Shown in pieces: positions 8,504-31,013 of a DNA stretch of 64,000 bases. The translations under genes were made by a program, and so were the position numbers. How positions within the stretch are numbered: the stretch's first letter is position 1; each line of letters starts with the position of its first letter. Where the stretch lies: the NCBI GenBank assembly GCA_037305845.1, contig CP147778.1:320001-384000 (forward strand). The letters run 5' to 3'. The DNA is from Candidatus Freyarchaeum deiterrae. Lineage in GTDB: Archaea; Asgardarchaeota; Jordiarchaeia; Jordiarchaeales; Jordiarchaeaceae. Under the pieces are notes generated by a model. It saw nothing but the letters and a program-made list of their open reading frames with translations, did not search any database and was not told where the DNA came from.

Positions 8504-9442
8504 TTGCAAAAATTTTCGAGAGTGAGGAAAGTGATATATGGATTACTAATATTTGACAGAACTGGAAAAAATTTTTTCCAAAAGTTTTATGGTAACATCG
8601 AGGTAGAGGAGAACATCATACGCAGCTTCGTTAAGGAGCTGACAATCCTCATGTACAACCTTAATCAGGTCAATAGAATTTCGTACATAAATCTGGAAAA
8701 GCTGAAATTTTTCTACTCCATTTTTAAAGACATAATCACAGTTTTTTGCACGGATCAAAATGAAGATCTAAGGGACGTCCACGACAAATTCGTCAAAGTG
8801 CAGGAAGAATTTATTAAAATTTTCGACAATCTACCGAGAGAAGAAAATAAACTGGAGGGGGAATCGAAAATTGAGAATAGCCCTCTAAATGTATTTCAAA
8901 AAACTGTGGACAAGATACTTTTCCCCCATCTTAAAACAGTGATAATTGGAGATGGCGGAGTTGGAAAAACTACCATTCTGAAACTTATCATGGGAGAAAA
9001 GACGATTTCCCCTTACCTTCCAACGGTTGGAGTGGATGTTAAAGAGTTTAGTAACGCGGTCAAAAACATGAATCTTATTCTCTGGGACTTCTCAGGTCAA
9101 CCACAGTTCAGAAAACTCTGGAGACCATTTCTCGATGGAACCCACATCGCCATCCTAGTTACGGATTCAACACCTAAAAACATAGAAGAAACAAAAAATA
9201 TATACCAATTAATTAAAGAAGAAAAACCGGAAATGAATTTCATACTAATCGCTAATAAGCAGGACTTACCAGACGCAACCGCACCCGAAACCATCGGAAA
9301 ATACTTGGGAATAACAGCGCACGGATTAGTCGCAATTGACCCAAACTACAGAAAAAAAATACTAGAAATAATCAGAGAAAAAATCACAGAGCTCACCCAA
9401 GTCAAGTCTAAACCATCTCTGCCCATTGACGTTAAGGCGTAA
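8504..9442 (+). CDS. Longin-like domain fused to Ras-superfamily (Arf-like) small GTPase; true start may be GTG at 8531
   Basis: G1 GDGGVGKT, G2 PTVG, G3 WDFSGQ, G4 NKQD; N-terminal ~120 aa with longin-like pattern (IYGLLIFDRTGKNFFQKFY). Confidence 0.85.
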   Translation: MQKFSRVRKVIYGLLIFDRTGKNFFQKFYGNIEVEENIIRSFVKELTILMYNLNQVNRISYINLEKLKFFYSIFKDIITVFCTDQNEDLRDVHDKFVKVQEEFIKIFDNLPREENKLEGESKIENSPLNVFQKTVDKILFPHLKTVIIGDGGVGKTTILKLIMGEKTISPYLPTVGVDVKEFSNAVKNMNLILWDFSGQPQFRKLWRPFLDGTHIAILVTDSTPKNIEETKNIYQLIKEEKPEMNFILIANKQDLPDATAPETIGKYLGITAHGLVAIDPNYRKKILEIIREKITELTQVKSKPSLPIDVKA

Positions 9443-11229: not shown

Positions 11230-12957
11230 TTGGAGAAGAGAATCAGTTGCATTGAGCCTGCGGATAAAGAGCTTTTTACTGGCAGACCTAGTGAGGTTAA
11301 AGAGTTTCAAGACTTTATTTCTGGAGTAAAGGCGGGTTCCGAAGATAAGAGAATTTGGGTAATTACCGGGATACCCGGCATTGGAAAGTCATCCCTGATG
11401 AAGAGGTTTATTCAGATAACTGAGACAGAGGGCCTAGAGGTACTGGTTAGAAATATTTCCGCCTCTGAGGCTAGAATGTTTTTCGATGGTGTGAAAAAAA
11501 CACTTGATAGTTACGCGCCTGAAGCTCGGAAAAAATTCATGGGCGAAAAGAAATACGTACCGGCTCCACCGCTTTCCAAAGAGATGGGGAGCCAGGAGTT
11601 TGAACAATTTTTTAACCAGTTCTTTGAGGATATGGATAAGGTTCAGCAAAAGCTCAGTAAGATTTTAGTGTTTTTCTGTGACAATTTCGAGCGTTTCGGT
11701 TGGTTGGGCTATGAGGCTGCTTACGATTTGTTCAGAAGAATAGCAGCCAGGCTGGGTGAAATGGGATTTAGCGTTTTCTTTATACTCAGTGTGGATAAAA
11801 AGTTTCTCGACTTGTTGGTGGATGATAAAGCGGAATTGTTTCGCGTAGTAGATTTGGATGTCTTCCCGGTGCAGGACGTACGTTTGTTGATTCAGAAATT
11901 TCAGAATGCGACGGGTATGAGGATTGATGATGCTCTTAAGGAGGAGTTAGCCAAAGCCTCAGGAGGTATCCCCTTTAAACTAGCATTATTTATCTGCGGT
12001 TTACTCAAGGAAACCCGTATGGGCGAGGTTCAACCGAGTGTGGAAATCTTTCGAAGAGTGGATAGCAAGATTCAGGATAACGCTCTGAACGCCTTAACCG
12101 ATCTAACCGTGGAGAAGGAGACTCTTGTAGATAAGATTGTTTCACAGAGGTTTAACTTGATTCCTCTAGAGGAACTTGGCTCAGAGGCGGGAGGGAAATC
12201 AAGCGGAAACGCTCTGAACGCTCTTATCGAAGAGGGAATAATAGAGGTTGATAGCTCCTCGGCTTGGCTTAAATCCGACGCGTTTTATGAAATGTTGAGA
12301 CTTCTTATTAACGTGGATCAGGTCTACGGTCGCGCAAGAGCCGTGCTGAAGGTAATCGGAAGAGTAATAGAAGTTAAGAACAGACCGGATCCCATTTACT
12401 TTGAGTGGCTGAGGGACTCTGCAAATATGCTGATCTCACAGGATAAACCCGCCCTAGCTGTAGAGATAGCCACGAATGCTGAGGTTTATGCAAACTCCGC
12501 GTTGGAAAATAAACTTTACTATGAATCCATGCAACTATTCCGCTTAACTGCTAATATCTACGAGAGGACGGGTGACTCTGAGCGTGCCGGAACTATTCTT
12601 GAGAGAGCCGCTAAACTCTTTGAGACTGAGGATAAGAGTTTCTATTCAAGGTCCCTGCTTTCCCGAGCCTCGGATCTTTTTGATGCTTCCAAGGTGGAGT
12701 GGAAAGCACGCTCCATATCTAGGAGCGCGGCTCTAATCTACGAGGAAACCGGAGACAGTTATGATGAGAGGGGGTTCAAAATGTTGGCAAGGGTTTTCTA
12801 CCGCAAAGCCTTTGAACACTATCTAAGGGCAGGGGATAAGGAGAGGATAGAAAGTTTATATGAAAAGGCTATGAACGCTTTTGGCGAGCAGCCAATTTTT
12901 CTAAAAGAGTTTGAGGAGTTAAAGAAAAAAGAAGGAGTAGTGGTTAAGGAGGAATGA
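11230..12957 (+). CDS. STAND-like P-loop ATPase with C-terminal TPR (alpha-SNAP-like) repeats
   Basis: FTGR, Walker A GIPGIGKS, Walker B FFCDNFE, GxP motif SGGIP; helical repeats such as AGTILERAAKLFE, FYRKAFEHY. Confidence 0.75.
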   Translation: MEKRISCIEPADKELFTGRPSEVKEFQDFISGVKAGSEDKRIWVITGIPGIGKSSLMKRFIQITETEGLEVLVRNISASEARMFFDGVKKTLDSYAPEARKKFMGEKKYVPAPPLSKEMGSQEFEQFFNQFFEDMDKVQQKLSKILVFFCDNFERFGWLGYEAAYDLFRRIAARLGEMGFSVFFILSVDKKFLDLLVDDKAELFRVVDLDVFPVQDVRLLIQKFQNATGMRIDDALKEELAKASGGIPFKLALFICGLLKETRMGEVQPSVEIFRRVDSKIQDNALNALTDLTVEKETLVDKIVSQRFNLIPLEELGSEAGGKSSGNALNALIEEGIIEVDSSSAWLKSDAFYEMLRLLINVDQVYGRARAVLKVIGRVIEVKNRPDPIYFEWLRDSANMLISQDKPALAVEIATNAEVYANSALENKLYYESMQLFRLTANIYERTGDSERAGTILERAAKLFETEDKSFYSRSLLSRASDLFDASKVEWKARSISRSAALIYEETGDSYDERGFKMLARVFYRKAFEHYLRAGDKERIESLYEKAMNAFGEQPIFLKEFEELKKKEGVVVKEE

Positions 12958-12964
12958 AAATTCT

Positions 12965-15277
12965 ATGGAAAAAATTCAGCAGAGAATAGCGGAAAGAAAG
13001 GAATCTCTAGTTGAATCAAACAACGCTGTTAAAGACATTGAGACAAAATTTAATGAAACCTTTTCCGCTTTGACAGAACAAATTGGACCTTCTTCAGAAA
13101 AATTGAAAGCAATTTCTAAGCAGTTTCAAACAAGTGAAGATAATCTGAAAAAAAAGTTCGCAGCCTCAATAAAGGGGGCTCAAAACAATATTGCTAACTG
13201 GATGCAGGAGATAGAAACCAGTCTTAAGGAGGAGATTAACACCCAAACCGGCTCGCTCAACCAGGGAATTGACACCATAACGGAGGAGCTGATATCGAAG
13301 CTAACCCAAATTGATTCGAACATTAACGGAAAGATTGAGGAGTCAAATAGCGGTGTTAGCCAGAAAGTCACGGAAACCCAATCAAGTTTAGACACGGAAT
13401 TAAACTCTTTAATTTCCCATATCGATGAATCCTCAGGAGAATTTCTCTCGAAAGCCGAAGAAAACAGAAAGACGCAGGAGGAGCTGTTATCGAATGTTTC
13501 TGAGGAACTAAAAAACCAGGTTCTCTCCAGCACCCAAAACTTTGGAGAATCAGAAAGCGGTTTTCTAAAAGAAAACTATAACGCTTTTACTTCTCAAATT
13601 ACGGATTTTGGTGCACGGACATCTGAAATTTTAGACGGTTATCAAGGTAATCTTGAATCCATGTTTTCGGATGCAAAAAAAGGCGCGGAATCCATAGTCC
13701 TTAAGATGAAAGAGAAGTTGGAAACGCTAGAGTCTGAGACAATAGGCAATTTGGAAAAGGCGTCCACGGAGTACTTGAACAAGGTTTCTGAGAATCACGA
13801 TTCTCTTAAAGGCGGATTGGATCAGAAATTGGGAGAGGCTACTTCCATTATAGAGGCAGCGAAGGAGGCGCTAAAGGCCGAAGTAAATAACTTAGCGGAG
13901 ACAAAACTAAAAGAAATAGAAGAGATTAGCAACCAAACGAGAGAAAAGCTTGACGAAGTTTCGGGTTTAAAGGAGAGAGATTTCTCGAAGAATGTGGAGG
14001 ATCTGCTTTCCGGCTTCTCTTCACAGCTTGTCGGTCAGCTTGAGAGGCTAGAAGGGAGTATGCAATCTCTGCAGGAGCAGGTAAGCGGAGATCTTTCAAG
14101 TGCTCTGGAACAGATTTCCAAATTGGTGACTTCAATTAACACTAATATCAATGCGATGTTTGTTTCGGAGTTGAAGGAGGTTCAATCCGTTCTTCAAAGT
14201 TATGAGGAGCAATACACGGAGCTGGTAAGTGGTTCTGTAAAATCTTTCTACGATGACGCCTCGGTCTTAAAGTCGGATTTCGATTCGAGATTAATGGAAA
14301 CCAGACAAGAGTTCAGCAAGTCGATGGAGACTTTGGTGGCCAAACTTTCAGAGTCTTTGGAGAATTATGTTGAGAAGAGCAAGACGGTAAAAGAGAGCAT
14401 CACAAATGATGTCTCGAATGTGCTGGATTCCAATAAAGCTTTACTCGAGTCTCAAAACGAGGAATTCAAAAGCAATGCATCCCAAGCTATAAAAAGCGCT
14501 ACTGAATCGTTTGGTGAAATGGGGGAGAGTTCGTCGTCAAGCCTAAGTGTTGGCGCAGACGAGACCATGCAAAAAATTACTGAAGAACTCACAAAGTCAA
14601 AGGACACCATCACTCAAATTATTGAAGAAAATAATGCCAAAACCGGAGAAGCCCAAGCGGCTTTCGAACAGAAACTGCAAGAACTGAACCAAAACCTAGG
14701 AACAAGTGTTGAAAACCTGGTGAAAGAATTCCAAGCTAAATGGGCTGAAGGCATCAGTGAAAACTCGTCAGCCAATACGGGAACTGTTGAAAACTTAAAG
14801 ACCTCATTAAAGGATACTATTTCGAACAGCATAAACAACCTGAAAGAAGAATTAGAGCGAACCAAGACGGTTATGGCTGAAACCACAAGCCAAGAAACCT
14901 CATCCATAAAAGAGCTTGTACAGAAAATGACTGAGACATCGGAGCAAAGCCTCGCCTCTGTTAAAACGAGTGTGAAAGAGAATCTAGATGGTACGGTTTC
15001 GGGTATTTCGACGCGACTTTCAGACCTAGGCACGAATACTGGTAATGAATTATCTGAAGTGGAAGAGGAGACTTTGAAAGAGTTGGGGAGCGGGATAGAT
15101 GAAATACAGGAAACCGTAAAAAATCTTATTAGCAGTTTCTCCGAGATTGACGGCGAAGTTAAAAGAAGTGGCGGGGGTGTCTCTAAAAACATTGCAAATC
15201 TATTGAAAACTTTGGGAGAAGCCTACAAGAGCCTCGAGGCTGCCGAAAAAGAAATCTCAAGTATAGGGGGTAGATAA
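12965..15277 (+). CDS. 770-aa acidic all-helical hendecad coiled-coil protein, function unknown
   Basis: No TM, one Pro; hydrophobic residues spaced 4-4-3; operonic spacing of 7 nt and 1 nt to neighbours. Confidence 0.8.
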   Translation: MEKIQQRIAERKESLVESNNAVKDIETKFNETFSALTEQIGPSSEKLKAISKQFQTSEDNLKKKFAASIKGAQNNIANWMQEIETSLKEEINTQTGSLNQGIDTITEELISKLTQIDSNINGKIEESNSGVSQKVTETQSSLDTELNSLISHIDESSGEFLSKAEENRKTQEELLSNVSEELKNQVLSSTQNFGESESGFLKENYNAFTSQITDFGARTSEILDGYQGNLESMFSDAKKGAESIVLKMKEKLETLESETIGNLEKASTEYLNKVSENHDSLKGGLDQKLGEATSIIEAAKEALKAEVNNLAETKLKEIEEISNQTREKLDEVSGLKERDFSKNVEDLLSGFSSQLVGQLERLEGSMQSLQEQVSGDLSSALEQISKLVTSINTNINAMFVSELKEVQSVLQSYEEQYTELVSGSVKSFYDDASVLKSDFDSRLMETRQEFSKSMETLVAKLSESLENYVEKSKTVKESITNDVSNVLDSNKALLESQNEEFKSNASQAIKSATESFGEMGESSSSSLSVGADETMQKITEELTKSKDTITQIIEENNAKTGEAQAAFEQKLQELNQNLGTSVENLVKEFQAKWAEGISENSSANTGTVENLKTSLKDTISNSINNLKEELERTKTVMAETTSQETSSIKELVQKMTETSEQSLASVKTSVKENLDGTVSGISTRLSDLGTNTGNELSEVEEETLKELGSGIDEIQETVKNLISSFSEIDGEVKRSGGGVSKNIANLLKTLGEAYKSLEAAEKEISSIGGR

Positions 15278-15278
15278 A

Positions 15279-18200
15279 ATGTCTTCATGGGAAGAAACTC
15301 TAAAGGAAATAGGAATAACGGGCGAACAGGCTCAGGTTTACGCTGTCTGTGTTGGGCTGGGAGCGAAAACGGCATCAGAATTGGCTGTTTACACAGGACT
15401 ATCTATTCCAGCTGTTTCAGAGGAACTTGAAAAATTGCAGACAATGGGTGTGATCAAAAAAATACCGGGCAAAATAGATTTCTATATTGCTTTGACACCC
15501 AGGATAGCCCTCACTGGAATGGTTGCTGACACTCTACAAAAAAAACTTGAAAATTTGAAAAGCAACATCATGACGAGTACAAATAACGCGATTGATAGCC
15601 TAAATCAAAGCGTTGCCACACTCAAAAGTAAACTAAATGAAGGCTTGTCAAACTATCTGGGGGAGGTTAAAGAGGGCAGTTCCCAGATAGTAGCTCAGCT
15701 TCTCGGCTCAACCAGCGAATCTGTGGAGAATTTTAAATCCGAAGCGAATCAACAATCCCAGAGCGTTGAGGGGTACCTGCAGCAAATGCTTAACCTTCAT
15801 GAGAAGGACTCCAAGGAAACCATAAAAAATCTAGTTGAAGCGAGTACCGAGTCGGTGAGTACGTTCCGGAGTGACATACAGGAAGTAAAAGACACCTCTG
15901 AGAGTGTGCTGAAAGATTTCATTGAACAGACGCGAATCTCCATAACTGATTTTCAGGAAAAGTTGGAAGCTGCTGTGAATGATGCTGTTAAAACAATAGA
16001 ATCAAGAGCCGAGGATGTGTCGGGTAGAGCGATTTCTGAAGTTACTTCGCTTTTCTCGGATCTCGACTACGCTTTTGACCAGTCGGTAAAAGAAATTAAT
16101 GAGATTGACCTGCAGCCACTGGCAACCATTAATGAGAATGCCATAGAGATTTCCAAGACTGCCATATCGGGCATGTCGGAACTCATGGATGAATTGGGAC
16201 CTCTAACCGAGACTCAAATCACAAATATTCAGAGTATGAAAGAAGCATTTTTGAAGGACTTTAATAAAACTCTTGAAGCTAATCGAAAAAAACTAGTCGG
16301 TTTTATGGACGAGATTGAGGGAGCTCTTGATACTCAAACTATAAAGATTAGAGATTTAATACTTGAAAATCTCACGCGTTTACAAACAGAGACCTCCCAA
16401 GTAATGGAGAGGTACACGGAAAAAATAACTGAAGTTGGTGAAACCTCAAAAAACGCGATTGAGCAGGTGAAGATAAACCTAAGCATCCAGGAAGAATTAA
16501 ACACGCAGGAAAACCAGTTGAAAACATCTTTGGAGGAAGAGGTTCAAAAAGCGGAAAGCGAACTGAAAACGAAACTAGCAGAAATAGATGAGGAAAGCAA
16601 CTCCCTAAAGCAGAGAATAGGGAGCATAAAAGATAAAGCTATTCAAGATTCTAGAAACAGCTTGGGGTCACTTCTTAAAAAAATAAACAAAGCGATGAAG
16701 AAACATTTAGATGACTTTGTATCCAGCTTCAATTCCGAATCTTTAACTCTTAAAAGAAATCTATCCGCTAATTTTAACGACAGCGTCGCCGTCCAAAAAA
16801 GCAAAATGACCAGTTTTGAAGAAACCTTCACAACAGCGCTAAACAAGATGCTAGACATTATTCAGTTCATTGAAGACAAGTCCGGCGATAAGAAAAAACT
16901 TTCACTGGGAAAAGAGGAAACAGAAGAACTCCTAAACAAAGTTACCTCCAGCAAAAATGAAATCACGGAATTGAAAAAGGAACTGAGAAACTCTGTAAAT
17001 GACCTTAATGAAAACATCAATAAGGTGTCCACAATCATTCTCGACGCACTCGACAAAAGCTTAACATACATCGGTGAATCCTTCGCAAAAAAAACCGAAA
17101 AACTCGTCCAATCAATACAGGAAGAAGATACCAAATCAAAGGAAATCGCCAGTAAAGTAAAAGAGAGCCCCGTTAAAACAAAAGAAAGTGCTGTTAAGGG
17201 CACCGGAGACATAGGAGAAAGTGCGATAGTCTCCGAAATAACAAGCTTCAAGACCATAAATGAAAAAAGCTTGATTACGTTCCACTCGGAGGTTGAGACA
17301 CAAATCGATAAGCAACTCCCCGAGATGGAGAAGATTATAACCGACGCCGTCGGCCAAGTTACAAGCACCAAGGACAGTTGCTTAACAGTATTCGGGTCTA
17401 TTAAAAGCGGAATCGTTGAACAAATAGACAAATCCTCAGAAATTTTAGAAAGTTCCAGGAGCTTGCTTGAAGAAAGTTTAGAAAGCATCAAACAAACACT
17501 GGAAAACACGAGCACAGATACACAGAACATTGTCACTCCGATAAAGGAGAGTGTCAGCAGCCAGACTTTACAACAGTTCGCCGAGGAAAAAACTTCGCTT
17601 GAGGAAAACCTGGAATCGGAAATAAAAGAATCTTATAACGATACTAGACAGAGACTGGAAGACTTTCAATCCAGCGTGAAAGAGAACCTAAACGGCTACT
17701 TAGATAAAGCCAACAAATTAAGAGCAACAGCAGATAAAAACGTGTACTCAAACATTAATAAAGAATTCAAAGATTTAACAAAACAACTCGAGGAACAAAA
17801 AGAAAAACTAGAGGAGACTCTAACCAAAAGCAAAGATGAGATAGAAGAAAAACACAGCAAAGTGCAAAAGGGAGCGGAAGAGGTAACTTCAACCCTTGGG
17901 CGAGACCTACCCAGCTATGTGGAGAAAATAAAATACGACCTACTTTCCACCATGGATAGGCATAGCAGGGAGAGCAGAGACTCTGCGGAAGTCAAACTGG
18001 ACAGCCTTGCCGCTATCACAGACAAGCCCTTCTCAAACATAGAAAGCAAACTCCTAGACTTCGATAGAAAATTGGGCTTGTTATTCGAAAAACGCCACTC
18101 CGAACTCAAATCCAAAACCTACGAAGCCCTCGAAAGCCTAAAAGACAGCCACAATGCATTCGAAGAAAGCTTGAACAGCCTATACTCAAGCATGGAACAG

Positions 18201-18809
18201 ACGCTAAACCAAAAAGTAGAAGAAACAGTCTCAAAGCATCAAGAAGACACCAGCAATACCATAAACACCACCACCACAAGTATTGAGGAAAATGAGACGG
18301 GTTCAATTCAGGCTCTAAACACGTTCACGGGGGAAATCCCGGAGAGAATAGGTGATGCCATAACCAGTACTCAGGACACTCTAAAACTCATAACCCAAAT
18401 AATGAAACTATCCGAAGAAATAGAACCCAAACCCTTCGAAGACACCGAGAGAGTGGTCGGAAGAGAACAAATACTAAACCTGCTAAAAACATTTATTAAA
18501 AACACAAAGAGCACCATAACCATCCTCACCCCTACCGTAGATGACATACCCATAGATGATCTGAAACAGATACCAAGGCAGAGAGTAACAGTAATCACGG
18601 ACGCCGAGGGAAAAGCCCCACCGATGCCTGGCCACGTCCAGCTCAAACACAACCCTGGAAACGTATACGCCTTCAACCGGGACAGTGAAGAAATGATACT
18701 AGCAGTAGCCACACCGGAACCACTGGGAATATACACCATAAACATGGAGCTAATCAAACTACTAAACCAGATATTACAAGATGTGTCCGCAAGAGCTAAA
18801 AAAATATAG
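15279..18809 (+). CDS. TrmB-like wHTH protein with very long coiled-coil insert and C-terminal TrmB/PLD-like domain
   Basis: N-term LKEIGITGEQAQVY...TASELAVYTGLS...LQTMGVI; C-term VVGREQILNLL..IKNTKSTITILTP...RDSEEMIL. Confidence 0.75.
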   Translation: MSSWEETLKEIGITGEQAQVYAVCVGLGAKTASELAVYTGLSIPAVSEELEKLQTMGVIKKIPGKIDFYIALTPRIALTGMVADTLQKKLENLKSNIMTSTNNAIDSLNQSVATLKSKLNEGLSNYLGEVKEGSSQIVAQLLGSTSESVENFKSEANQQSQSVEGYLQQMLNLHEKDSKETIKNLVEASTESVSTFRSDIQEVKDTSESVLKDFIEQTRISITDFQEKLEAAVNDAVKTIESRAEDVSGRAISEVTSLFSDLDYAFDQSVKEINEIDLQPLATINENAIEISKTAISGMSELMDELGPLTETQITNIQSMKEAFLKDFNKTLEANRKKLVGFMDEIEGALDTQTIKIRDLILENLTRLQTETSQVMERYTEKITEVGETSKNAIEQVKINLSIQEELNTQENQLKTSLEEEVQKAESELKTKLAEIDEESNSLKQRIGSIKDKAIQDSRNSLGSLLKKINKAMKKHLDDFVSSFNSESLTLKRNLSANFNDSVAVQKSKMTSFEETFTTALNKMLDIIQFIEDKSGDKKKLSLGKEETEELLNKVTSSKNEITELKKELRNSVNDLNENINKVSTIILDALDKSLTYIGESFAKKTEKLVQSIQEEDTKSKEIASKVKESPVKTKESAVKGTGDIGESAIVSEITSFKTINEKSLITFHSEVETQIDKQLPEMEKIITDAVGQVTSTKDSCLTVFGSIKSGIVEQIDKSSEILESSRSLLEESLESIKQTLENTSTDTQNIVTPIKESVSSQTLQQFAEEKTSLEENLESEIKESYNDTRQRLEDFQSSVKENLNGYLDKANKLRATADKNVYSNINKEFKDLTKQLEEQKEKLEETLTKSKDEIEEKHSKVQKGAEEVTSTLGRDLPSYVEKIKYDLLSTMDRHSRESRDSAEVKLDSLAAITDKPFSNIESKLLDFDRKLGLLFEKRHSELKSKTYEALESLKDSHNAFEESLNSLYSSMEQTLNQKVEETVSKHQEDTSNTINTTTTSIEENETGSIQALNTFTGEIPERIGDAITSTQDTLKLITQIMKLSEEIEPKPFEDTERVVGREQILNLLKTFIKNTKSTITILTPTVDDIPIDDLKQIPRQRVTVITDAEGKAPPMPGHVQLKHNPGNVYAFNRDSEEMILAVATPEPLGIYTINMELIKLLNQILQDVSARAKKI

Positions 18810-19013: not shown

Positions 19014-20231
19014 TTGAAACAGCTTCAAAAGATGGATATCAAAATGGGAATGCGAAGCTCACGGAGTAGAAAAACTAGGAAGAAGATGGTTACCGAGCAA
19101 AAAGAGGCCTCCGCGGTCTCTATGCTTAAGCCTAACGCCATAATGTTTTTTACTAATGTTTCCATAGGAATTGGTCAAATCATTCTTCCTCTATTTGCTA
19201 AGGATCTGGGAGCCTCAGACACCCTGCTAGGCATTATCGGTGCGGGGTATGGGTTGGCTCTGCTCGTTTCCTCATACATTTTTGGCTGGGCTGCCGATGT
19301 CACCGGGAGAAGGGTTCTCTTACTGGCTGGCTTGCTGAGTTCTGCGGTAATGTACGGTATGCAGTTTTTGGTTCCCAATGGGAACTTTTTGTTTATAACT
19401 TGGTCTCTGGCGGGTTTTTGTGTAGGAATTTATCCTCAAGCCTTGATAGCTTACGGCTATGAACTGAAGAGAAAAATGGGTACATTTGTATCATATGGTT
19501 CTCTGGGCTGGGGTTTGGGAAACCTTATTGCGGGAATTATTGCCATTTACCTGGATGTATTCATCTTAGCGGGTTTATTCTTCTTATTAGGGTTTGTAGT
19601 TGCACTCAGAATGCCGATTACCGATGTTAGACTCAAGGTACCCTTGTTTCCCAAACACGTAATTAAGAGAAATGTATCAATTTATATAGCATTTTTCCTG
19701 AGACACACGGGCGCTTATGCCGCGTGGATTATTTTCCCCCTCTTCTTAAGGCAGCTGGGTGCAAACGATGTATGGATAGGTGTACTGTACGCAATAAATT
19801 CCTTCGGCCAATTCTTTATGATGAGACCCTTAGATAGGTTCAGAAGCGTGTCATTGGTTATAGGTGGGCTTTCATTCTCCGCATTGACATTCTCCCTATA
19901 CTTCTTTGCACAAAACGTTTGGCAAGTAATTCCCATTCAGCTAGTTCTAGCCCTCTCATGGTCTCTACTTTATATCGGCTCTCTAAAATTCGTAGCCGAA
20001 AGCGGGATTGAGAGAGGAACGTCAGTAGGTTTACTCAATCTGACCATCAGCCTCTCAACAGTTATCGGGCCCCTAATAGGAGGAGTCATCAGCCAACTGT
20101 GGGGATTCAGATACACTATGCTCTTCGCTCTGGCCCTAACTCTCGCTGGTTTATTATTTTTCACACTCTATCTAAGACACAGCAATAACAACACTCAAGA
20201 ACCACAAAATAAAAAGAATAAAAAATTGTAA
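19014..20231 (+). CDS. MFS transporter (true start probably downstream)
   Basis: About 12 hydrophobic segments; motif A GWAADVTGRR. Confidence 0.88.
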   Translation: MKQLQKMDIKMGMRSSRSRKTRKKMVTEQKEASAVSMLKPNAIMFFTNVSIGIGQIILPLFAKDLGASDTLLGIIGAGYGLALLVSSYIFGWAADVTGRRVLLLAGLLSSAVMYGMQFLVPNGNFLFITWSLAGFCVGIYPQALIAYGYELKRKMGTFVSYGSLGWGLGNLIAGIIAIYLDVFILAGLFFLLGFVVALRMPITDVRLKVPLFPKHVIKRNVSIYIAFFLRHTGAYAAWIIFPLFLRQLGANDVWIGVLYAINSFGQFFMMRPLDRFRSVSLVIGGLSFSALTFSLYFFAQNVWQVIPIQLVLALSWSLLYIGSLKFVAESGIERGTSVGLLNLTISLSTVIGPLIGGVISQLWGFRYTMLFALALTLAGLLFFTLYLRHSNNNTQEPQNKKNKKL

Positions 20232-20302: not shown

Positions 20303-20758
20303 TCAGATCTTGGTCGAAATGCTTTTACCGAACTCCTCAGCTTTGGCAAGTTCACCTTCAACAAGTGGACCCTTCGAAAACCCCTTGATTTGCGTTGTTA
20401 AACCCGGAGCAACCAGTTTTAGCCCTGGAATTTTTCCTCGAATCTGTTTCTCCATTTTTTGAACAGCTCTGAGGTCATTTCTCGCGTGTGTGTCGAAAAC
20501 AGCGCCTGCTTTTCCTTTCAAATCAAGCTTTTCTAACTTTTTCAGGAAATTCTTGATGTCTCCCACCGGTCCTCCCCCGTTATTTGGGGAACCAATAATT
20601 AACGCATCATATTCTAAAGCTTCTTCGGGTTTAGTTTCCTTAACGTCCTTGACTGCAGCCTCTGCCTTTTTCGTTGTATTAATACCCTTGGCTATTGCCT
20701 CTGCTACTGCTTTGGTGTTCCCGTACCTGCTCCAATAAACTACCAATGCTTTTGGCAA
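20303..20758 (-). CDS. Flavodoxin, copy 1
   Basis: YWSRYGNT FMN phosphate loop, IIGSP, AVFDT. Confidence 0.9.
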   Translation of the reverse strand: MPKALVVYWSRYGNTKAVAEAIAKGINTTKKAEAAVKDVKETKPEEALEYDALIIGSPNNGGGPVGDIKNFLKKLEKLDLKGKAGAVFDTHARNDLRAVQKMEKQIRGKIPGLKLVAPGLTTQIKGFSKGPLVEGELAKAEEFGKSISTKI

Positions 20759-21032
20759 AATATCAAACGCTCCACCAATAATTTTCTGATACTATTTTAT
20801 TTAACCTATTTTGTAATTATCCGCTCCTTAAACCAGAAGATTAAATGTATTTTATTGTTTAATGGGTGCATGAAATATTAATTTTTATTCGTTGACAGTG
20901 ACCAGCCAAACAATCGAAATTATAAAAAAAATAGGTTATAGGGAGTTACTACTTAGATTGTAATGAACTCCAATGAAACTCTTTTGGGAAATAGCTCATC
21001 ACGATTTATTCGCTTAACAGTTTTATTTATTT

Positions 21033-21497
21033 TCAGATCTTGGCCGAAATGCTTTTACCGAACTCTTCAGCTTTGGCAAGTTCTCCTTCAACAAGTGGAC
21101 CCTTCATAATTCCCTTGGCCTCTCCTCCAAAACCCGGAGCCACCAGTTTTAAACCCGGAATTTTTCCCCGAATCTGTCTCTCCATTTTTTGAATAGCTCT
21201 AAGATTACTTTGTCCCGGACCACTGTGTGTGTCGAAAACAGCGCCTTTTTTTCCTTTCAGATTAAGCTTTTCTAATTTTTTCAGGAAATTCTTGATGTCT
21301 CCAACCGGTCCTCCACCGTGGTTTGCAGAACCAATAATTAGCGCATCGTAGTCTAAAACCTCTTCGGGTTTAGTAATCTTAACGTCCTTGACTACAGCCT
21401 CTGCCTTTTTCGTTGCATTAATACCCTTGGCTATTGCTTCTGCTACTGCTTTGGTGTTTCCCGTCTTGCTCCAATAAACTACCAATGCTTTTGGCAA
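21033..21497 (-). CDS. Flavodoxin, copy 2
   Basis: YWSKTGNT, IIGSA, AVFDT. Confidence 0.9.
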   Translation of the reverse strand: MPKALVVYWSKTGNTKAVAEAIAKGINATKKAEAVVKDVKITKPEEVLDYDALIIGSANHGGGPVGDIKNFLKKLEKLNLKGKKGAVFDTHSGPGQSNLRAIQKMERQIRGKIPGLKLVAPGFGGEAKGIMKGPLVEGELAKAEEFGKSISAKI

Positions 21498-21765
21498 AAT
21501 ATCAAACGCTCCTTCAATAACTTTCTGCTACTATTACACAATTTTGTGATTACCCTCTCCCTAAATTAGGAGATTAAACTTATTTTATTATTTTATAGGT
21601 ACATGAAATATTAATATTTATTCTTTGGCAGTGACCAGCTAAACAATCAAAAATATCAAAAAAATATGTTATAGGGAGTTACTGCTTGAATTGTAGTGAA
21701 CTCCAATGAAACTCTTTTGGGAAATAGCCCATCACGATTTATTCGCTTAACCGTGTTATTTATTT

Positions 21766-22221
21766 TCAGATCTTGGTCGAAATGCTTTTTCCGAACTCCT
21801 CAGCTTTCGCAAGTTCACTCTCAGCAATTGGACCCTGCATTCCCTCAACCTGCAATGCTAAGCTTGGGGCAACTAGTTTTAGGCCTGAAATTTTTTCCTG
21901 TATCTGTTTCTCCATTTTTTGCCCGACTTTAAGGTCGTTTTTATTATGTGTATCAAAAACGGCGCATGCTTTTCCTTTCAAATTAAGCTTTTCTAATTTT
22001 TTCAGGAAATTCTTGATGTCTCCAACCGGTCCTCCCATGTGATTTGCCGAACCAATAATTAACGCATCGTAGTCTAAAACCTCTTCTGGTTTAGTATCTT
22101 TAACATTCTTTACTACTACCTCTACCTTTTTTGCTGCCTTTATTATCCCTTTGGCTATTGAATCTGCCACTTTTTTGGTGTTTCCGTACCTACTCCAATA
22201 GACAATTAAAACTTTTGACAA
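21766..22221 (-). CDS. Flavodoxin, copy 3 (start moved to TTG at 22221 by alignment with paralogs)
   Basis: YWSRYGNT; paralogs begin at the equivalent TTG. Confidence 0.88.
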   Translation of the reverse strand: MSKVLIVYWSRYGNTKKVADSIAKGIIKAAKKVEVVVKNVKDTKPEEVLDYDALIIGSANHMGGPVGDIKNFLKKLEKLNLKGKACAVFDTHNKNDLKVGQKMEKQIQEKISGLKLVAPSLALQVEGMQGPIAESELAKAEEFGKSISTKI

Positions 22222-22399
22222 AATCACATCACTCCCCAAATAGACTTTTAGTATCTTCTTATTCAATCGTACAAATATCTTTTACTCTAATCTAAGCGCA
22301 AGATTAAATATCTTTAGGAAACAAGGAATAATGGAAGTATGGAAGAACTTACCTAAGATTTTCTCACTCTCAAGAATAATTCACTCTCCGTGTTTTAGG

Positions 22400-23786: not shown

Positions 23787-25115
23787 TTGATTACTATAAA
23801 TCCACGAAATGGTGGTGAGACTGTTTTGGAAGGAGTATTCTTTTCTGATGTTACTGGAATTGATCCCGAAAATCATATAATTTGCACTTATTATGTAGAA
23901 ACTTCTGGCAGTCTTGAGAGTGCTGGAGAAGCCATAGCTGCAGAAGAATCCATAGGAACATGGACTGACATCAAAACTATAAAAGTTGATATTCAGCAGA
24001 GACTCGCAGCTAAGGCTTTCAAATTCGAGGAAAAAGAAAAGGGAACAGGATTAATTAAGATAGCCTTTCCCTTGGAACTTTTCGATTTAGAAAAAGGTGG
24101 CATCCCAAACATAATGAGCATGATTACAGGAAACCTATTCGGCCTTTCAGCATTAAAAAATGTGAGACTGCTTGACGCTGAATTCCCCAAGTCTGTGCTG
24201 ACCTATTTTCCCGGACCGAAATTCGGATTGGAAGGCGTAAGAAAAATCGTAGGTACAAAGGAGAGTAGACGACCTCACCTCGGAACAATAATCAAACCCA
24301 AGGTTGGTCTAAACCCATCAGAAACCGCTGAAGTGGCTTACGAGGCAGCTGTCGGCGGAGTGGACTTCATCAAGGATGATGAAACGCTTGTCTCACAGAG
24401 CTTCTGTCCCTTGGAAGAGAGGCTTTCCAAAGTTATGGAGAAAATTGACCTAGTGAAGGAGGAAACAGGACGCACAGTTTTCTATGCACTGAACATAACC
24501 GGGAACGTGAATACGCTCTATGAGTTTGCGGATTACGCAGTGGAAAACGGAGCAAACATGATTATGCTGGACATCCTGCTCTCCGGCTTAGCCGCATTAC
24601 AGAGACTCGCAGAGGACCCCTCGATAACGGTTCCCCTTCACTGCCACAGAACATTCCACGCAGCCTTCACCAAAAACCCTGTCCACGGAGTCCACATGAA
24701 GGTGATAGGCATGTTAACCAGACTCGCCGGAGGAGACCAGCTTCACAGCGGAACCGCTGCGGGAAAAATGGGGATAGAGGAAGAGACACCTGAAACGTTA
24801 GAAACCAACGCCGCTCTGCTTAAAGAGTGGGGGAACATGAAAACAGTTATGCCTGTAGCTTCGGGTGGAATTCACCCCGCACTGGTTCCCAAAAACCTCG
24901 AAGTACTGGGCACAGACCTCGTCATCAACGCAGGTGGCGGCATCCACGGTCACCCGGACGGAACTAGAGCAGGAGCTGCTGCAATGAGGCAGGCGATAGA
25001 CGCGGTTATGAAAAAAATCCCTCTAGAAAAATACGCAAAGACACACAAAGAACTTCAAAGAGCACTTGAAAAATGGGGATACAGGTACGTAGAAAAACCC
25101 GAATCCATCAAGTAG
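23787..25115 (+). CDS. rbcL: RuBisCO large subunit, archaeal form III type (start probably TTG at 23826)
   Basis: EESIGTW, GNLFG, IIKPKVG, DFIKDDE, HCHR, HSGTAAGKM, SGGIH, GGGIHGHP. Confidence 0.9.
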   Translation: MITINPRNGGETVLEGVFFSDVTGIDPENHIICTYYVETSGSLESAGEAIAAEESIGTWTDIKTIKVDIQQRLAAKAFKFEEKEKGTGLIKIAFPLELFDLEKGGIPNIMSMITGNLFGLSALKNVRLLDAEFPKSVLTYFPGPKFGLEGVRKIVGTKESRRPHLGTIIKPKVGLNPSETAEVAYEAAVGGVDFIKDDETLVSQSFCPLEERLSKVMEKIDLVKEETGRTVFYALNITGNVNTLYEFADYAVENGANMIMLDILLSGLAALQRLAEDPSITVPLHCHRTFHAAFTKNPVHGVHMKVIGMLTRLAGGDQLHSGTAAGKMGIEEETPETLETNAALLKEWGNMKTVMPVASGGIHPALVPKNLEVLGTDLVINAGGGIHGHPDGTRAGAAAMRQAIDAVMKKIPLEKYAKTHKELQRALEKWGYRYVEKPESIK

Positions 25116-25940: not shown

Positions 25941-28900
25941 CTAAACAATGTCTAGCTGGCTCAATTTCTTCTCGCAACTCGGGCAGGTTCCCTTTATCTT
26001 GATCCATTCTAATAGGTGGTCTTTGTGGCTCAGGGCTCCGCAGCATGGACACTTGACCAACTGGTCTCCTGAGACAATGTTTATCTGGCACACTGGGCAC
26101 CTGAGTCTGGCTCCTCCGCAGTTGGGGCAATACTTTTCGTCCCCCTGAATCTCGGTTCCGCAGAACATGCAGCACCGCTGCCCAATGTCAGGTGTAGGTG
26201 AGGTGATTACTCCCAGCTTTTTCTCAACGGTAGCAAGTTTGGCGCTGTATTTCTGGTATATTTCCCGGTACTCGTCGGGGGTGAGTTTTCCGGCTTCGAA
26301 CCGGGTGTTTATCTCCGCCATCAGGTCCTTGAGAGCCGCCCTTCTAGATTCGAGGTCTTGAGCCAGACGCTTGGCTTTGGCTGGCTTTACACGCTTTGCA
26401 GCGGTTACTGTCTGTGCTTCACTCTGAGGCGTTGTCCTCCTGATTTTGAGAATTATCTTCTGTTCTGAGGCTTTTTCTTCTCTTGTGGGAGAGATTTGGG
26501 TCCCTGTATAGCTGGCTGGTCTCTGAGGAGCAGTCTCTGGATATCTGGTTGGGGCTTCCGTCTCGGTAATCTGTTCTTCTTCCCTTCTTCCTCTCCGCAA
26601 TCCCAATGTGGCAACCGTGACCCCTGCGACCGCGACCAAGCCTAGAGTCAGGTAAATCAGAGGATTTAGGCCGCTGGGTGTATTCAAGAAAAGTATTAGT
26701 AATGGGATATACGGATACCACACTGGTGTTCCGAGTATGGCAAAGTAGGTTAAATGGTTAGTATACCCAGTTATTGTGTTGTTCTGGATGTCTACGGTGC
26801 TTGGGAGCTGGATCCAGTTTCCTGAGGTTTCGTTCCAGTACCATATTGCTAGGGAGTTTTCTTTCAGGTTGTTTCCTGTGACTTCTTGGTCAGTGTAGTG
26901 TATTGTTATATTGATTCCCTGAATTGCGGTTGTGTTATCTACCTCGATAGAAACAAATCTTCCCAAAAAGTTCAAGCCGAAGGGCGTATTTCCCTTCAGG
27001 TTATCTATGATTTTTATAATGCTCAAGTTAACTGGATTTGTTAGATTTATAGTGAGTTCTACCCCCATTTGTACCGAGACATTCACAAGTTTATTTATAC
27101 CAGCACCAATACTGGTAGTGATTGAAGAGTCTACTTTTTCCACAACAAAAGTTTCCTTATGAGATGAACTCATGTAGACTGTTCTTTTGTTGTCCGTAAT
27201 ATTTAGCCCAAAGAAACTAGCAGTCACTCTGGCCGCATTATATATCGGGGTCCCACCAACATAGGTTTGATATGGTACAATAAACCAGTCGGTTAATCCA
27301 CTTTGGTTTGTTGTGGAGTTGCTGCCGCCAAATTCAGGAGAGGCGTAAACTACGTTTCCATCAACCTCTACCTTAACGTCCGCACCCTGTACAGGATTCT
27401 CGTTTTTGTCCAGAACCTCAATACAGAGATAATTTGCTACAACACTTCCCGTGAAATCAATATATAAGTTACTACCATCCAGATTGAAACCGTATCTGTT
27501 GTTCACAAGAGTGTTATCTGTAAGAGTATTGTTGTTTGATTTCCATTCTAGGAAGAAACCGGCGGCGCCGTTGTTGTTTGCAGTGTTACACGAAAGAGTG
27601 TTGTTTGAGCTTTGGGACAGGAAGAAGCCGTCTCCGTTGTTGTTTGCGGTATTGTTTGAGAGAGTATTGTTGGAGCTGTCGTACATGTAGAAGCCATCGC
27701 CGTTGTTGATGGCGAAATTGCTCATAAGTTTGCTATACGTGCTGCGAAATATATCGAATCCATAGTTGTTGTTGCTTGCTGTGTTACCCGTAAGAGTGTT
27801 GTTGTAGGTGTTGTATATGTTGAAGCCGTCCCAGACGTTGTTGGTTGCGGTGTTGCCTGAGATATTGTTGTTATTGGAACCGAACCAGAGATATAAGCCG
27901 TACATGTTGTTGTATGAAATCGTATTATTAATGAGTTGGTTGTTGGAACTGGAGTCGAGGAAGAATCCGTCGTTACTGTTGTTTGTGACGTTGTTGTTTC
28001 TTATTATATTGTAGTAAGCATTCCAGAGCAATATTCCATAGTAGTTGTTTGAGAAGGTGTTGTTTTCGATTACCGCGTTGTCGGTGTTTATGCAGGGACC
28101 GCAATCCTCTTTGTTTGGCCAGTTGCTGTATCCGCAGTAGTGTATTTCGCTGTTGTTCATCTGGAATGTTGCTCCGGGTTGCACCCAGAATACGAAGTTA
28201 TGCGCATTATCTTTATTGTAGGCTGTGATTACTGTGGCGTCATTTGTGGTGAGAGGGTTACCGTCACTATCATTGATGTACAATGCTCCCCCGCTCTTAA
28301 CTTCTATGCCGTGTTCGCCGTTGGTGGAGCAGTTGACAAATAAGGTGACGCTGGTTAGTGTCAGGCTTCCCCCGCCAGCTATTGTAAGGTTTCCATTTAG
28401 TATAATTTGAGTGTTTGAAATGTTCTGTGAATCACTTATTGTGGTATCTCCCCATATAGTGGGGGTAGCGGTGAAGTTTTCAATATGAGAAGATGATATG
28501 TCAACAATTCTAGGGTTGTTGAGAAAGCTCATTATTTTGAATTTCACGGTTACAACCGTTGTGTTCCCCACCCAGGCTCCACTGGTAAAGGTTTGATAGG
28601 GAACAATGATCAAGTCGGTTAATCCGTTTTGGTCTGTTGAGGAATTAATTCCACCAAATCCGGGGGAGGCGTAAAGCGGGTTCCCGTCAACCTCTACCTT
28701 AACATCCGCACCCTGCACAGCACCACCGTCGTAGCCCAGTACCTTAACGCTGAGATAATTTGACACAATACTGCCTGTGAGATCATTGCCTGAACTGCCA
28801 GCTTCAAGATAGAAACCGTATGCGTTGTTTACGGCAGCGTTTCCCGTAATAGTATTGTTCAAGCAGGAGAATAGGTAGAAGCCGTAGGTGCTGTTTGTGG

Positions 28901-31013
28901 CGGTGTTACTCGAAAGAGTATTGTTATTGGAGCTGGAGGATAGGTAGAAGCCGTAGTAGTTGTTGTTTGTGACGGTGTTACTTGTAAGATTGTTGTTTGA
29001 GCTGGAGGATAGACCGAAGCCTAAATAATAGTTGAGGTTTGCGGTGTTACTCGAAAGAGTATTATTCGAGCTGGAGGATAGGAAGAAACCGTCCCAGCCG
29101 TTGTGGTATGCGGTGTTACTCGAAAGAGTATTGTTGTTCGAGTAGTGGTTAAGGTCGAAGCCGTTGCCTCTCCAGCCGAAAGCCCCGTTGTCGTTTGCGG
29201 TATTACCCAAGAGAATATTGTTGTTCGAGTAGTGGTCTAGGTCGAAGCCCCAATAGTTGTATTTTGCGGTATTACTTGTAAGAGTGTTATTTGAGCTGGA
29301 GTTTAGGTAGAAGCCGTATTGGGTGTTGTTGTTTGCGGTGTTACCCAAGAGAGTATTATTCGAGCTGGAGGATAGGCTGAAGCCGTCGTTAATATTGTTG
29401 TTTACGGTGTTACCCAAGAGAGTATTGTTGTATGCAGAGTATAATGTGATTCCAACATAGTTGTTTGTGAATGTGTTGTTCTCTATGACTGCGTTGTTGG
29501 TGCTTATCCAGAGACCATAATAGTCATAGTTACTGGTCGTGTAATTGTATCCGCAGTATTGCAGTTCGCTGTTGTTCATCTGGAATGTTGCTCCGGGTTG
29601 CACCCGAAATAGGAAGTTATGCGTGTTGTCTGGATTATAGGCAGTGATGTTTGTGGCGTCGTTTATAGTATTAGGGTTTCCGTCGCTGTCATTTATGTAT
29701 AGTGCTCCTCCACTCTGAACCTCTATGCCGTGTTCACCGTTAGTGGTGCAGTTGACCATTAAGGTATCATTGGTTAGTGTCAGGCTTCCCCCACTAGCGA
29801 TTGTTAGGTTTCCGTTCAGAATTATGGCTTTGCTGTAAATTATTTGAGTATCGGTGATAATGGTATCGTTCCAGATTTCTTCTTCGCTTCCCCAGGCTCC
29901 CTGGATTGGTTCGGGGTCACATAAATTTCTTACAAAGCACCAATCAACTGTTACACTTGTATTAGTACCTCTTGCCCCAAAATTTATACCCAAATTATCT
30001 TTAGGTGCTTGGCCAGGCATCCAAGCTGTTAAAATGTCGTTTTCGAAGAATTGGACGTCATTTTTCCAAATTATCTTTAAAATATGGTAAGAGCTTAAAT
30101 CTGTTCTTCGGACTACCATGCCAGCACTGTCGTCTGTCCATACTTGATAATAATCTAGCGCAAACTCGGCAATATCAAACCCGAAACCCGAGTAACCACC
30201 ACCTGTTGCGCTTCTTTCATCCGCAGCTATCTGCCACGCATTTTGTCCACCGGCTTGTCCGTATGCTTTAGCTCTGAAATAAAAAGCTCTCGGCTTGCTG
30301 AATTGGACTCTAGCGCCGATGGATTCAAAATCGAGACCTCCATTGCCCAAAATTGTTAACTCGGTTCCAGACTCGGAATACGCACCGCCTGTTTTCCCTA
30401 TATTCCATTTGTTCGTGTCCAAAATATTGTCATCAAAGTGATCAAAGAATGGAAAAGTGTTAGTCCCATTACTAGTTGTTGTGGCATCGTTTTTCCCATA
30501 ATAAACGTAAATAGTAGTATTGTTAGGTGCAACGGGGATAGAATCTACTTGGACCCAGAAGGTCGCGTTGTCACCGTCGTACTCGCTCTCCATCCAGTAG
30601 TTCAGTTGGCTGGTTCCATCCGAGTTTGTGAACCTTATGTCGCCGAAGTCTGTTCTGCAGTTAGCCTTACAATAAATGTTCTCGGCGTTGTCGCTGCCGC
30701 TGCTGTAGTGTACCACTATCATCGTCTGGTAATTGGTCTGGGCACCCGCAGTACTTCCACTTAATGTGTGGCTTTTGCAGTATTCCCATCCCGACAGCCA
30801 AAAAGCTTTTGCATTAATATTATTGTTATTTTGGGGGTTGTTTAAAAATAGGGTTTGAAAGTAATTTGTATTTGTAGTTTGGTAAGAGAGGAATACGGGT
30901 ATGCATATTGAAATGGTGAAAAGTGAAATCGCCATTAATGCGATGAATGCACGTTTATGATTATTTAAACGGTTTTTTAGGCTTGGTATTTTCACCCGCC
31001 TCATTTCTCCCAT
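25941..31013 (-). CDS. Large membrane-anchored surface glycoprotein: DUF2341-like domain, PbH1/NosD beta-helix blocks, TM, cytoplasmic zinc ribbon and RING-like finger
   Basis: N-terminal hydrophobic segment; DFGDIRFT...IYVYYG; NNTLSSNTANNN..GF.L repeats; TM followed by RRGRR; CPVC-x12-CPCC-x4-H-x2-H-LLEW-x6-CPSC. Confidence 0.85.
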   Translation of the reverse strand: MGEMRRVKIPSLKNRLNNHKRAFIALMAISLFTISICIPVFLSYQTTNTNYFQTLFLNNPQNNNNINAKAFWLSGWEYCKSHTLSGSTAGAQTNYQTMIVVHYSSGSDNAENIYCKANCRTDFGDIRFTNSDGTSQLNYWMESEYDGDNATFWVQVDSIPVAPNNTTIYVYYGKNDATTTSNGTNTFPFFDHFDDNILDTNKWNIGKTGGAYSESGTELTILGNGGLDFESIGARVQFSKPRAFYFRAKAYGQAGGQNAWQIAADERSATGGGYSGFGFDIAEFALDYYQVWTDDSAGMVVRRTDLSSYHILKIIWKNDVQFFENDILTAWMPGQAPKDNLGINFGARGTNTSVTVDWCFVRNLCDPEPIQGAWGSEEEIWNDTIITDTQIIYSKAIILNGNLTIASGGSLTLTNDTLMVNCTTNGEHGIEVQSGGALYINDSDGNPNTINDATNITAYNPDNTHNFLFRVQPGATFQMNNSELQYCGYNYTTSNYDYYGLWISTNNAVIENNTFTNNYVGITLYSAYNNTLLGNTVNNNINDGFSLSSSSNNTLLGNTANNNTQYGFYLNSSSNNTLTSNTAKYNYWGFDLDHYSNNNILLGNTANDNGAFGWRGNGFDLNHYSNNNTLSSNTAYHNGWDGFFLSSSSNNTLSSNTANLNYYLGFGLSSSSNNNLTSNTVTNNNYYGFYLSSSSNNNTLSSNTATNSTYGFYLFSCLNNTITGNAAVNNAYGFYLEAGSSGNDLTGSIVSNYLSVKVLGYDGGAVQGADVKVEVDGNPLYASPGFGGINSSTDQNGLTDLIIVPYQTFTSGAWVGNTTVVTVKFKIMSFLNNPRIVDISSSHIENFTATPTIWGDTTISDSQNISNTQIILNGNLTIAGGGSLTLTSVTLFVNCSTNGEHGIEVKSGGALYINDSDGNPLTTNDATVITAYNKDNAHNFVFWVQPGATFQMNNSEIHYCGYSNWPNKEDCGPCINTDNAVIENNTFSNNYYGILLWNAYYNIIRNNNVTNNSNDGFFLDSSSNNQLINNTISYNNMYGLYLWFGSNNNNISGNTATNNVWDGFNIYNTYNNTLTGNTASNNNYGFDIFRSTYSKLMSNFAINNGDGFYMYDSSNNTLSNNTANNNGDGFFLSQSSNNTLSCNTANNNGAAGFFLEWKSNNNTLTDNTLVNNRYGFNLDGSNLYIDFTGSVVANYLCIEVLDKNENPVQGADVKVEVDGNVVYASPEFGGSNSTTNQSGLTDWFIVPYQTYVGGTPIYNAARVTASFFGLNITDNKRTVYMSSSHKETFVVEKVDSSITTSIGAGINKLVNVSVQMGVELTINLTNPVNLSIIKIIDNLKGNTPFGLNFLGRFVSIEVDNTTAIQGINITIHYTDQEVTGNNLKENSLAIWYWNETSGNWIQLPSTVDIQNNTITGYTNHLTYFAILGTPVWYPYIPLLILFLNTPSGLNPLIYLTLGLVAVAGVTVATLGLRRGRREEEQITETEAPTRYPETAPQRPASYTGTQISPTREEKASEQKIILKIRRTTPQSEAQTVTAAKRVKPAKAKRLAQDLESRRAALKDLMAEINTRFEAGKLTPDEYREIYQKYSAKLATVEKKLGVITSPTPDIGQRCCMFCGTEIQGDEKYCPNCGGARLRCPVCQINIVSGDQLVKCPCCGALSHKDHLLEWIKIKGTCPSCEKKLSQLDIV

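Follow-up and report, generated by a model that had tools for sequence, protein, structure and literature searches.

The 64,000-nucleotide (nt) window analyzed here (contig CP147778.1, positions 320,001 to 384,000, of the Asgard archaeon Candidatus Freyarchaeum deiterrae) carries a three-gene operon encoding a STAND-type ATPase, a headless helical rod, and a 1176-amino-acid (aa) protein in which two TrmB-derived end domains are separated by a giant rod. We propose that this last rod very probably forms an antiparallel hairpin of 11-residue repeats, which turns at residues 537-544 and brings the winged helix and the C-terminal domain together at its base. An initial annotation, made from the sequence alone, had anticipated several features of the 1176-aa protein but had omitted both upstream genes of the operon and the Asgard-wide family of paralogues.

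Domain anatomy and very probable fold-back of the 1176-residue protein

At the N-terminus, the Pfam TrmB family (PF01978) matches residues 8-74 (E 3.9e-9; 36.7 bits against a cut-off of 25.6), in agreement with the winged helix that the initial annotation had placed in the first ~75 residues. It had also likened the last ~120 residues to the TrmB C-terminus. On their own these residues match nothing in Pfam, and a PDB sequence search with the C-terminal profile of the family returned nothing real. The likeness was borne out by direct comparison of this profile with ordinary TrmB (hhalign 92%, E 6e-7) and by the AlphaFold model, whose best fold matches are TrmBL2, TrmB (2f5t), and PLD-fold proteins; PF11495 matches one of 16 family members weakly. 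As had been noticed before, the catalytic HKD motif is missing: HxKxxxxD occurs neither in the protein nor in its 78 relatives, and the PLD catalytic His and Lys positions hold Asn and Tyr. The sugar-binding residues of TrmB sit in a second subdomain (PMC4158304), and in the model the 1176-aa protein stops after a single alpha/beta (PLD-like) domain; with that subdomain missing, the earlier name 'effector domain' is not supported.

The same order of winged helix, helix, and PLD-like domain is found in TrmBL2 of Thermococcales (5bpd, 5box) and in TrmB (3qph, 2f5t), to which the protein is homologous by profile and fold, and TrmBL2 likewise lacks the sugar subdomain. Unlike either, the protein has a linker of ~975 aa (76-1051) instead of ~30 (29-35 aa in the ordinary TrmBs of the same genome), which would pair with itself and not only with a second subunit. 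It has also lost the recognition-helix motif, and its gene belongs to a fixed operon that encodes an ATPase and another rod as well.

The rod had been described as a coiled coil of ~980 aa. The length was about right; the repeat is a different one. Hydrophobic residues recur with a period of 3.66 (power 1.5-1.8, compared to 0.25-0.27 in shuffled sequences, or ~6x), while the power at period 3.5 is merely 0.22-0.25, near the shuffled level. The rod is therefore an 11-residue (hendecad) repeat and not a heptad coiled coil. It is strongly acidic, and in the model it forms helix between residues 74 and 1047, interrupted chiefly at 398-403, 537-544, and 628-647. The closest relatives come from Freyarchaeota/Jordarchaeia. 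An assembly error as the origin of the short rod was rejected, since a 1168-aa relative (86% identity) aligns with the same deletions; a second relative of 86% identity is likewise 1176 aa long.

The central break at 537-544 had been recognized as Lys-rich and proposed as the point at which the rod folds back, and comparison of relatives supports this proposal. Scored along the rod for basic, Gly, and aromatic residues, 29 of 78 non-redundant relatives reach their maximum no further than 3% from the midpoint, where 4.7 would be expected. The lengths of the two arms co-vary closely among the 26 relatives found with the tip profile (r=0.996; rods of 507-1608 aa), as they do in a second tip clade (r=0.9998, n=23). 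Moreover, the net arm insertions of 12 out of 13 close pairs, which partly share members and hence are not independent, differ by no more than 10 aa between the two arms and mirror each other in distance from the tip (for example 231/241, 33+40/33+33, 44/44, 62/62, and 11/11). The largest matched change observed, +409/+408, separates a 714-aa member (L060 6312-8456) from the 1534-aa P0121, with which it shares the tip motif. Many insertions are multiples of 11, as the initial annotation had suggested they might be. Because insertions and deletions (indels) are matched across the arms, the register of the arms appears to be under selection, and the family provides a clear example from nature of an 11-residue hairpin whose two arms evolve in matched length. 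With each residue adding ~0.15 nm, the Lys-rich tip would lie ~70 nm from the base. Structure prediction, which had been proposed as a check, agrees in part: the helix is broken at the tip and confidence is high on mirror-image segments.

The protein itself is the most lopsided of the 26 relatives, its break falling ~22 residues ahead of the rod midpoint. Compared to a 1340-aa relative, the outgoing arm is short by 103 aa and the returning arm by 60 aa net, including a matched 74/74. The returning arm is the longer one, and the bulge at 628-647 probably absorbs some of the excess.

Amphipathic 11-residue helices could alternatively wrap lipid particles or membrane edges, unpaired, in the manner of apolipoproteins, and the rod does match Pfam Apolipoprotein E (2e-22; score 80.3, below the cut-off of 90) and ApoLp-III. 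However, mirrored, paired indels require arm-to-arm pairing, the prolines are irregular and leave no regular 22-residue breaks of the apolipoprotein type, and ZorA tails and further 11-residue rods match these stretches too, which makes the match compositional. We regard lipid packaging as very improbable. ZorA tails and apolipoproteins are long 11-residue helical rods too, with matches confined to rod stretches and below curated cut-offs where such exist; no MotA-like membrane domain, ZorB, or nuclease of the kind that partners Zorya or Avs was found beyond such rod-stretch matches.

A further parallel is provided by SMC and Rad50 arms, the former of which the initial annotation had named. 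The bare topology holds, namely an intramolecular antiparallel arm that reunites N- and C-terminal domains and is matched in length. The likeness does not extend to the 7-residue repeat of these proteins, nor to their heads and hinge: there is no Pfam or NCBIfam match to ABC ATPase halves, a hinge, or a zinc hook, a loop of 8 residues makes up the tip, the ATPase of the operon is encoded separately and is of STAND type, and no kleisin is encoded there.

Table 1. Features of the operon and of the TrmB-headed rod protein, in window coordinates
Feature	Position	Strand	Basis or remark
STAND-type ATPase, 575 aa, first operon gene	11230..12957	+	Pfam AAA_16, ATPase_2, nSTAND1; weak SNAP/TPR
Headless rod protein, 770 aa (~115 nm if straight)	12965..15277	+	period 3.66
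Conserved central core of headless rod (aa 305-465)	13877..14359	+	comparison of relatives
TrmB-headed rod protein, very probably folded back, 1176 aa, ATG start	15279..18809	+	third gene of operon
TrmB-type winged helix (aa 1-74), recognition helix degenerate, wing basic	15279..15500	+	Pfam PF01978; profile matches to TrmB 3qph and TrmBL2 5bpd; column counts
Outgoing helical arm (aa 76-536, ~69 nm)	15504..16886	+	periodicity, model, arm comparison
Lys-rich tip of the predicted hairpin (aa 537-544)	16887..16910	+	helix break in model; location at the midpoint and mirrored indels among relatives
Returning helical arm (aa 545-1047)	16911..18419	+	periodicity, model, arm comparison
Non-helical bulge (aa 628-647)	17160..17219	+	coil, pLDDT under 50; lineage-specific insertion
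PLD-like C-terminal domain, TrmBL2 type (aa 1056-1176), without HKD and sugar-binding subdomain	18444..18806	+	profile and fold matches

An Asgard-wide family and its operon partners

The C-terminal profile has one to six matches in each of 116 out of 121 Asgard genomes and none in 301 Thermoproteota genomes (the phylum of an Aigarchaeota genome); its best 150 matches nearly all lie in long frames. In a tree of the end domains, the rods branch apart from the sampled ordinary TrmBs (support 100/99) and fall into three old groups: the clade of the operon (99/94), another clade with tips, to which the Lokiarchaeia belong (97/90), and a clade with unbroken rods (96/92). The genome studied here encodes one of each, of 1176, 753, and 1306 aa. 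Neither the 753-aa paralogue, which has its tip at the midpoint (G000 C1 1064804-1067065, minus strand), nor the unbroken 1306-aa paralogue (G000 C1 1173380-1177300, minus strand) has an adjacent ATPase. TrmB forms an antiparallel, domain-swapped dimer (PMC4158304). By comparison, members with a tip may be arms that pair with themselves and carry one head, and those with unbroken rods may be dimers with two heads. Length changes among the unbroken paralogues fall mostly near the midpoint, as would fit antiparallel dimers; this is a lead only, since at ~30% identity gaps may simply fall in the least-conserved middle.

These data also bear on the idea that the protein is an ordinary sugar-sensing TrmB regulator whose linker expanded neutrally. 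Both end domains are indeed TrmB-derived, yet matched indels point to selection on arm register, the sugar subdomain is absent, the recognition Tyr is lost, the rods branch apart from the ordinary TrmBs sampled, and the genome already has three ordinary TrmBs. We disfavor this explanation as extremely unlikely.

A single-protein query of viral contigs found no relative, and atlas searches gave leads only, all under 0.9. A 'Bathyarchaeota' match was rejected as a non-Asgard member, the phylum sample of its genome being the Asgard set. A 1.4-Mb Asgard genome encodes a 461-aa member with an N-terminal extension of ~130 aa and a rod of 118 aa (L058 7024-8409), possibly an intermediate form. The family is easy to overlook, since its members carry just the annotations 'helix-turn-helix protein' or 'TrmB regulator'.

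In the operon, 7 nt separate the ATPase gene from that of the headless rod and 1 nt separates the latter from the gene of the TrmB-headed rod, whose stop codon is followed by a T-rich stretch. A sigma-70 promoter scan, unsuited to archaea, stayed at chance level. Jordarchaeia and no fewer than four further families share this gene order. The ATPase is present in 37 and the operon tip type in 33 of the 121 Asgard genomes, and all 33 lie within the 37. This co-occurrence spans ten families, from some of which the ATPase and tip profiles were built. On the strength of synteny and co-occurrence, we consider it likely that the TrmB-headed rod works with both upstream proteins. An MFS transporter gene (19014-20231, plus strand) follows the operon in several genomes, all of the same genus.

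The first partner consists of a P-loop domain, a helical domain, a winged helix, and TPR/SNAP-like repeats, with an intact Walker A motif and an invariant first Walker B Asp. Its model (pLDDT 86) best matches the STAND-TPR protein 6mfv, and also Avs3/Avs4. STAND-TPR ATPases such as the PH0952-type protein 6mfv, MalT, and Avs3/Avs4 share this layout, but the operon ATPase differs in that no N-terminal or otherwise fused effector domain was seen and in being encoded with two giant rods, single-copy, and lineage-wide. The second partner, the headless rod, keeps a constant 11-residue phase, unbroken over ~680 aa. In relatives between 425 and 773 aa long, its conserved core occupies the middle, which would be explained if the protein were, as is probable, an antiparallel homodimer. 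We rejected the notion that its length tracks that of the arms in the relatives compared.

The company of a STAND-TPR ATPase raises the possibility of a relay resembling a chemoreceptor or a split MalT, in which the ATPase senses a ligand or damage and docks near the tip, from where the signal travels along the hairpin to the winged-helix head and elicits gene regulation or a stress or defence response. Such a relay would account for an ATPase with sensor-type TPRs and without an effector of its own, for its fold matches (6mfv, Avs3/Avs4), and for a conserved patch 40-60 aa ahead of the tip. The hairpins of chemoreceptors (methyl-accepting chemotaxis proteins) are long, have a conserved tip, and form length classes through paired symmetric indels, which are their hallmark and which the rod shares; the literature searched contained no citable paper on these indels. 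The two differ in that the rod has an 11-residue repeat (period 3.66) instead of the heptad, no transmembrane or HAMP part, no Pfam MCPsignal match, and no che genes nearby. The evidence against a relay is this: the ATPase is single-copy and lineage-wide with no defence-island context, PADLOC yields only compositional ZorA-tail matches, two other clades of the family have no adjacent ATPase, and the DNA-reading residue is lost. Altogether, signaling is a rather unlikely function for the hairpin.

Head, tip, and a putative ATPase-controlled strut

The recognition-helix Tyr (Tyr50), named as the most important residue for DNA binding by TrmB (PMC4158304), occurs in none of 78 rods and in all 119 ordinary TrmBs, the controls being close relatives; TrmB and TrmBL2 likewise keep it. 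For the most part, the rods further lack the adjacent Pro and Lys/Arg and the Arg-Pro of the wing. Owing to the loss of this signature, DNA binding by the head is doubtful. The operon clade keeps Lys/Arg30, Tyr38, Lys/Arg60, and Lys/Arg65, with basic residues 30, 60, and 65 present in 26/26, 24/26, and 21/26 members. An overall acidic winged helix was considered and rejected, as only specific columns differ from ordinary TrmB. Since basic residues are conserved and net charge is unchanged, a loose hold on the DNA backbone is possible.

A purely chromosomal role, in line with the initial annotation, would be a special case of a structural one: the head would bind DNA without sequence specificity, as does TrmBL2, and the arms together with the headless rod would bridge DNA or block loop extrusion by SMC, with no membrane contact. 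TrmBL2 is a chromatin protein and an SMC roadblock (PMC4877046, PMC11840125). In favor of this alternative, TrmBL2 is the best fold match, the basic residues just described are largely kept, and SMC-like (1117 aa) and ScpA-like (190 aa) genes, both identified from their N-termini, end convergently beside the operon in one Jordarchaeia genome (L028 114-4041). Against it, the head has lost two features of ordinary TrmB, namely the recognition-helix motif and the wing Arg-Pro; the rod, moreover, is strongly acidic, and the SMC neighbor was seen at that locus only. The protein differs from TrmBL2-like chromatin proteins in its recognition helix while keeping a basic wing, and we think it unlikely that it serves chromatin architecture alone.

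At the other end of the hairpin, tips carry a net positive charge in an otherwise acidic rod (+1.5 versus -0.7 per 14 aa), and 18 of 26 contain an aromatic residue. The tip of the Loki-type clade has a conserved Lys run with Phe/Trp/Leu and recalls membrane-targeting helices, such as that of MinD. Since the tip of the 1176-aa protein lacks an aromatic residue and has a weak hydrophobic moment, a membrane anchor would be better supported in that clade. Tip-type members are present in both cultured Lokiarchaeia, Promethearchaeum syntrophicum (963 aa; 3185900-3188791 of NZ_CP042905.2, L089/L181) and Ca. Lokiarchaeum ossiferum (about 1050 aa; L087), making localization and biochemistry feasible now. 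Gene counting from published locus tags places the P. syntrophicum member within tags 3346-3392, and the one other rod-type head in the 360 kb counted lies near tag 3150; the member is therefore probably DSAG12_03376. This 'TrmB regulator' ranked tenth by score in the published P. syntrophicum proteome, with a normalized spectral abundance factor (NSAF) of 0.15 compared to 0.24 for pyruvate phosphate dikinase (PMC11284389), in a single replicate and by a score that favors long proteins. An NSAF of the order of a central enzyme fits a structural protein better than a regulator.

Given the loss of the recognition Tyr, the sugar subdomain, and the HKD motif, the near-universal presence of the family in the Asgard genomes searched, and the probable abundance of a paralogue, the role of the protein is probably structural and not promoter-specific. 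Taking hairpin, three-protein unit, and structural role jointly, we lean towards a strut or tether of set length that is controlled by a switch ATPase. The turn at 537-544 would place both end domains at the base and the tip ~70 nm away, and the TrmB-headed rod would act together with the STAND ATPase and the headless rod. The heads could form oligomers via the C-domain, as TrmBL2 does, and grip the nucleoid loosely by wing lysines or a protein partner, while the cationic tip might meet the membrane or another polyanion. The headless rod, as an antiparallel dimer, could cross-link the arms, and the STAND-TPR ATPase might license assembly or release. This complete chain, from head oligomers and nucleoid hold through tip contact and rod cross-linking to ATPase licensing, is tentative, as we infer each of its steps.

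Several points weigh against a strut of this kind. The relatives are non-independent samples, and the rod model has a predicted template-modeling score of only 0.30 and comes without a contact map. The net charge of the winged helix is the same as in ordinary TrmB. The tip of the 1176-aa protein is merely Lys-rich, without an aromatic residue, and its hydrophobic moment is weak (0.35); the partners of head and tip alike are putative. A single genus contains arms of between 465 and ~800 residues, yet headless rods of a constant ~770, which argues against a precise ruler and against rod pairing over the full length. Finally, the proteome evidence comes from a single replicate and another clade and depends on gene counting.

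We rate the system as outside the kinds described so far, with a putative function; the literature searched, which excludes most subscription papers, contained no description of the protein or the operon. Asgard archaea have no known lamins or tethers, and how they arrange their DNA and the inside of the cell is an unanswered question in research on eukaryogenesis. It is conceivable, albeit speculative and on balance improbable, that TrmB-derived struts of 35-120 nm, one-headed hairpins and two-headed dimers included, have existed since early in Asgard evolution and link nucleoid to membrane under ATPase control throughout the group. If true, such struts would be a molecular candidate for the gap of 0.16-0.18 um between DNA and ribosomes in cells of the Loki and Heimdall groups (PMC8776820).

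The surroundings of the operon hold further genes. Two genes upstream lies a fusion of a longin-like domain (weak Clat_adaptor_s) with an Arf/Roc-type small GTPase (8504-9442, plus strand), a eukaryote-like signature protein that is not kept beside the operon in relatives. Downstream, three near-identical flavodoxin-like genes stand in tandem (20303-22266, minus strand), followed by a RuBisCO large-chain-like protein recognized by sequence inspection (23787-25115, plus strand). A 1690-aa secreted or membrane protein (25941-31013, minus strand) combines parallel beta-helix-like repeats with a cytoplasmic zinc-ribbon/RING-like C-terminus.

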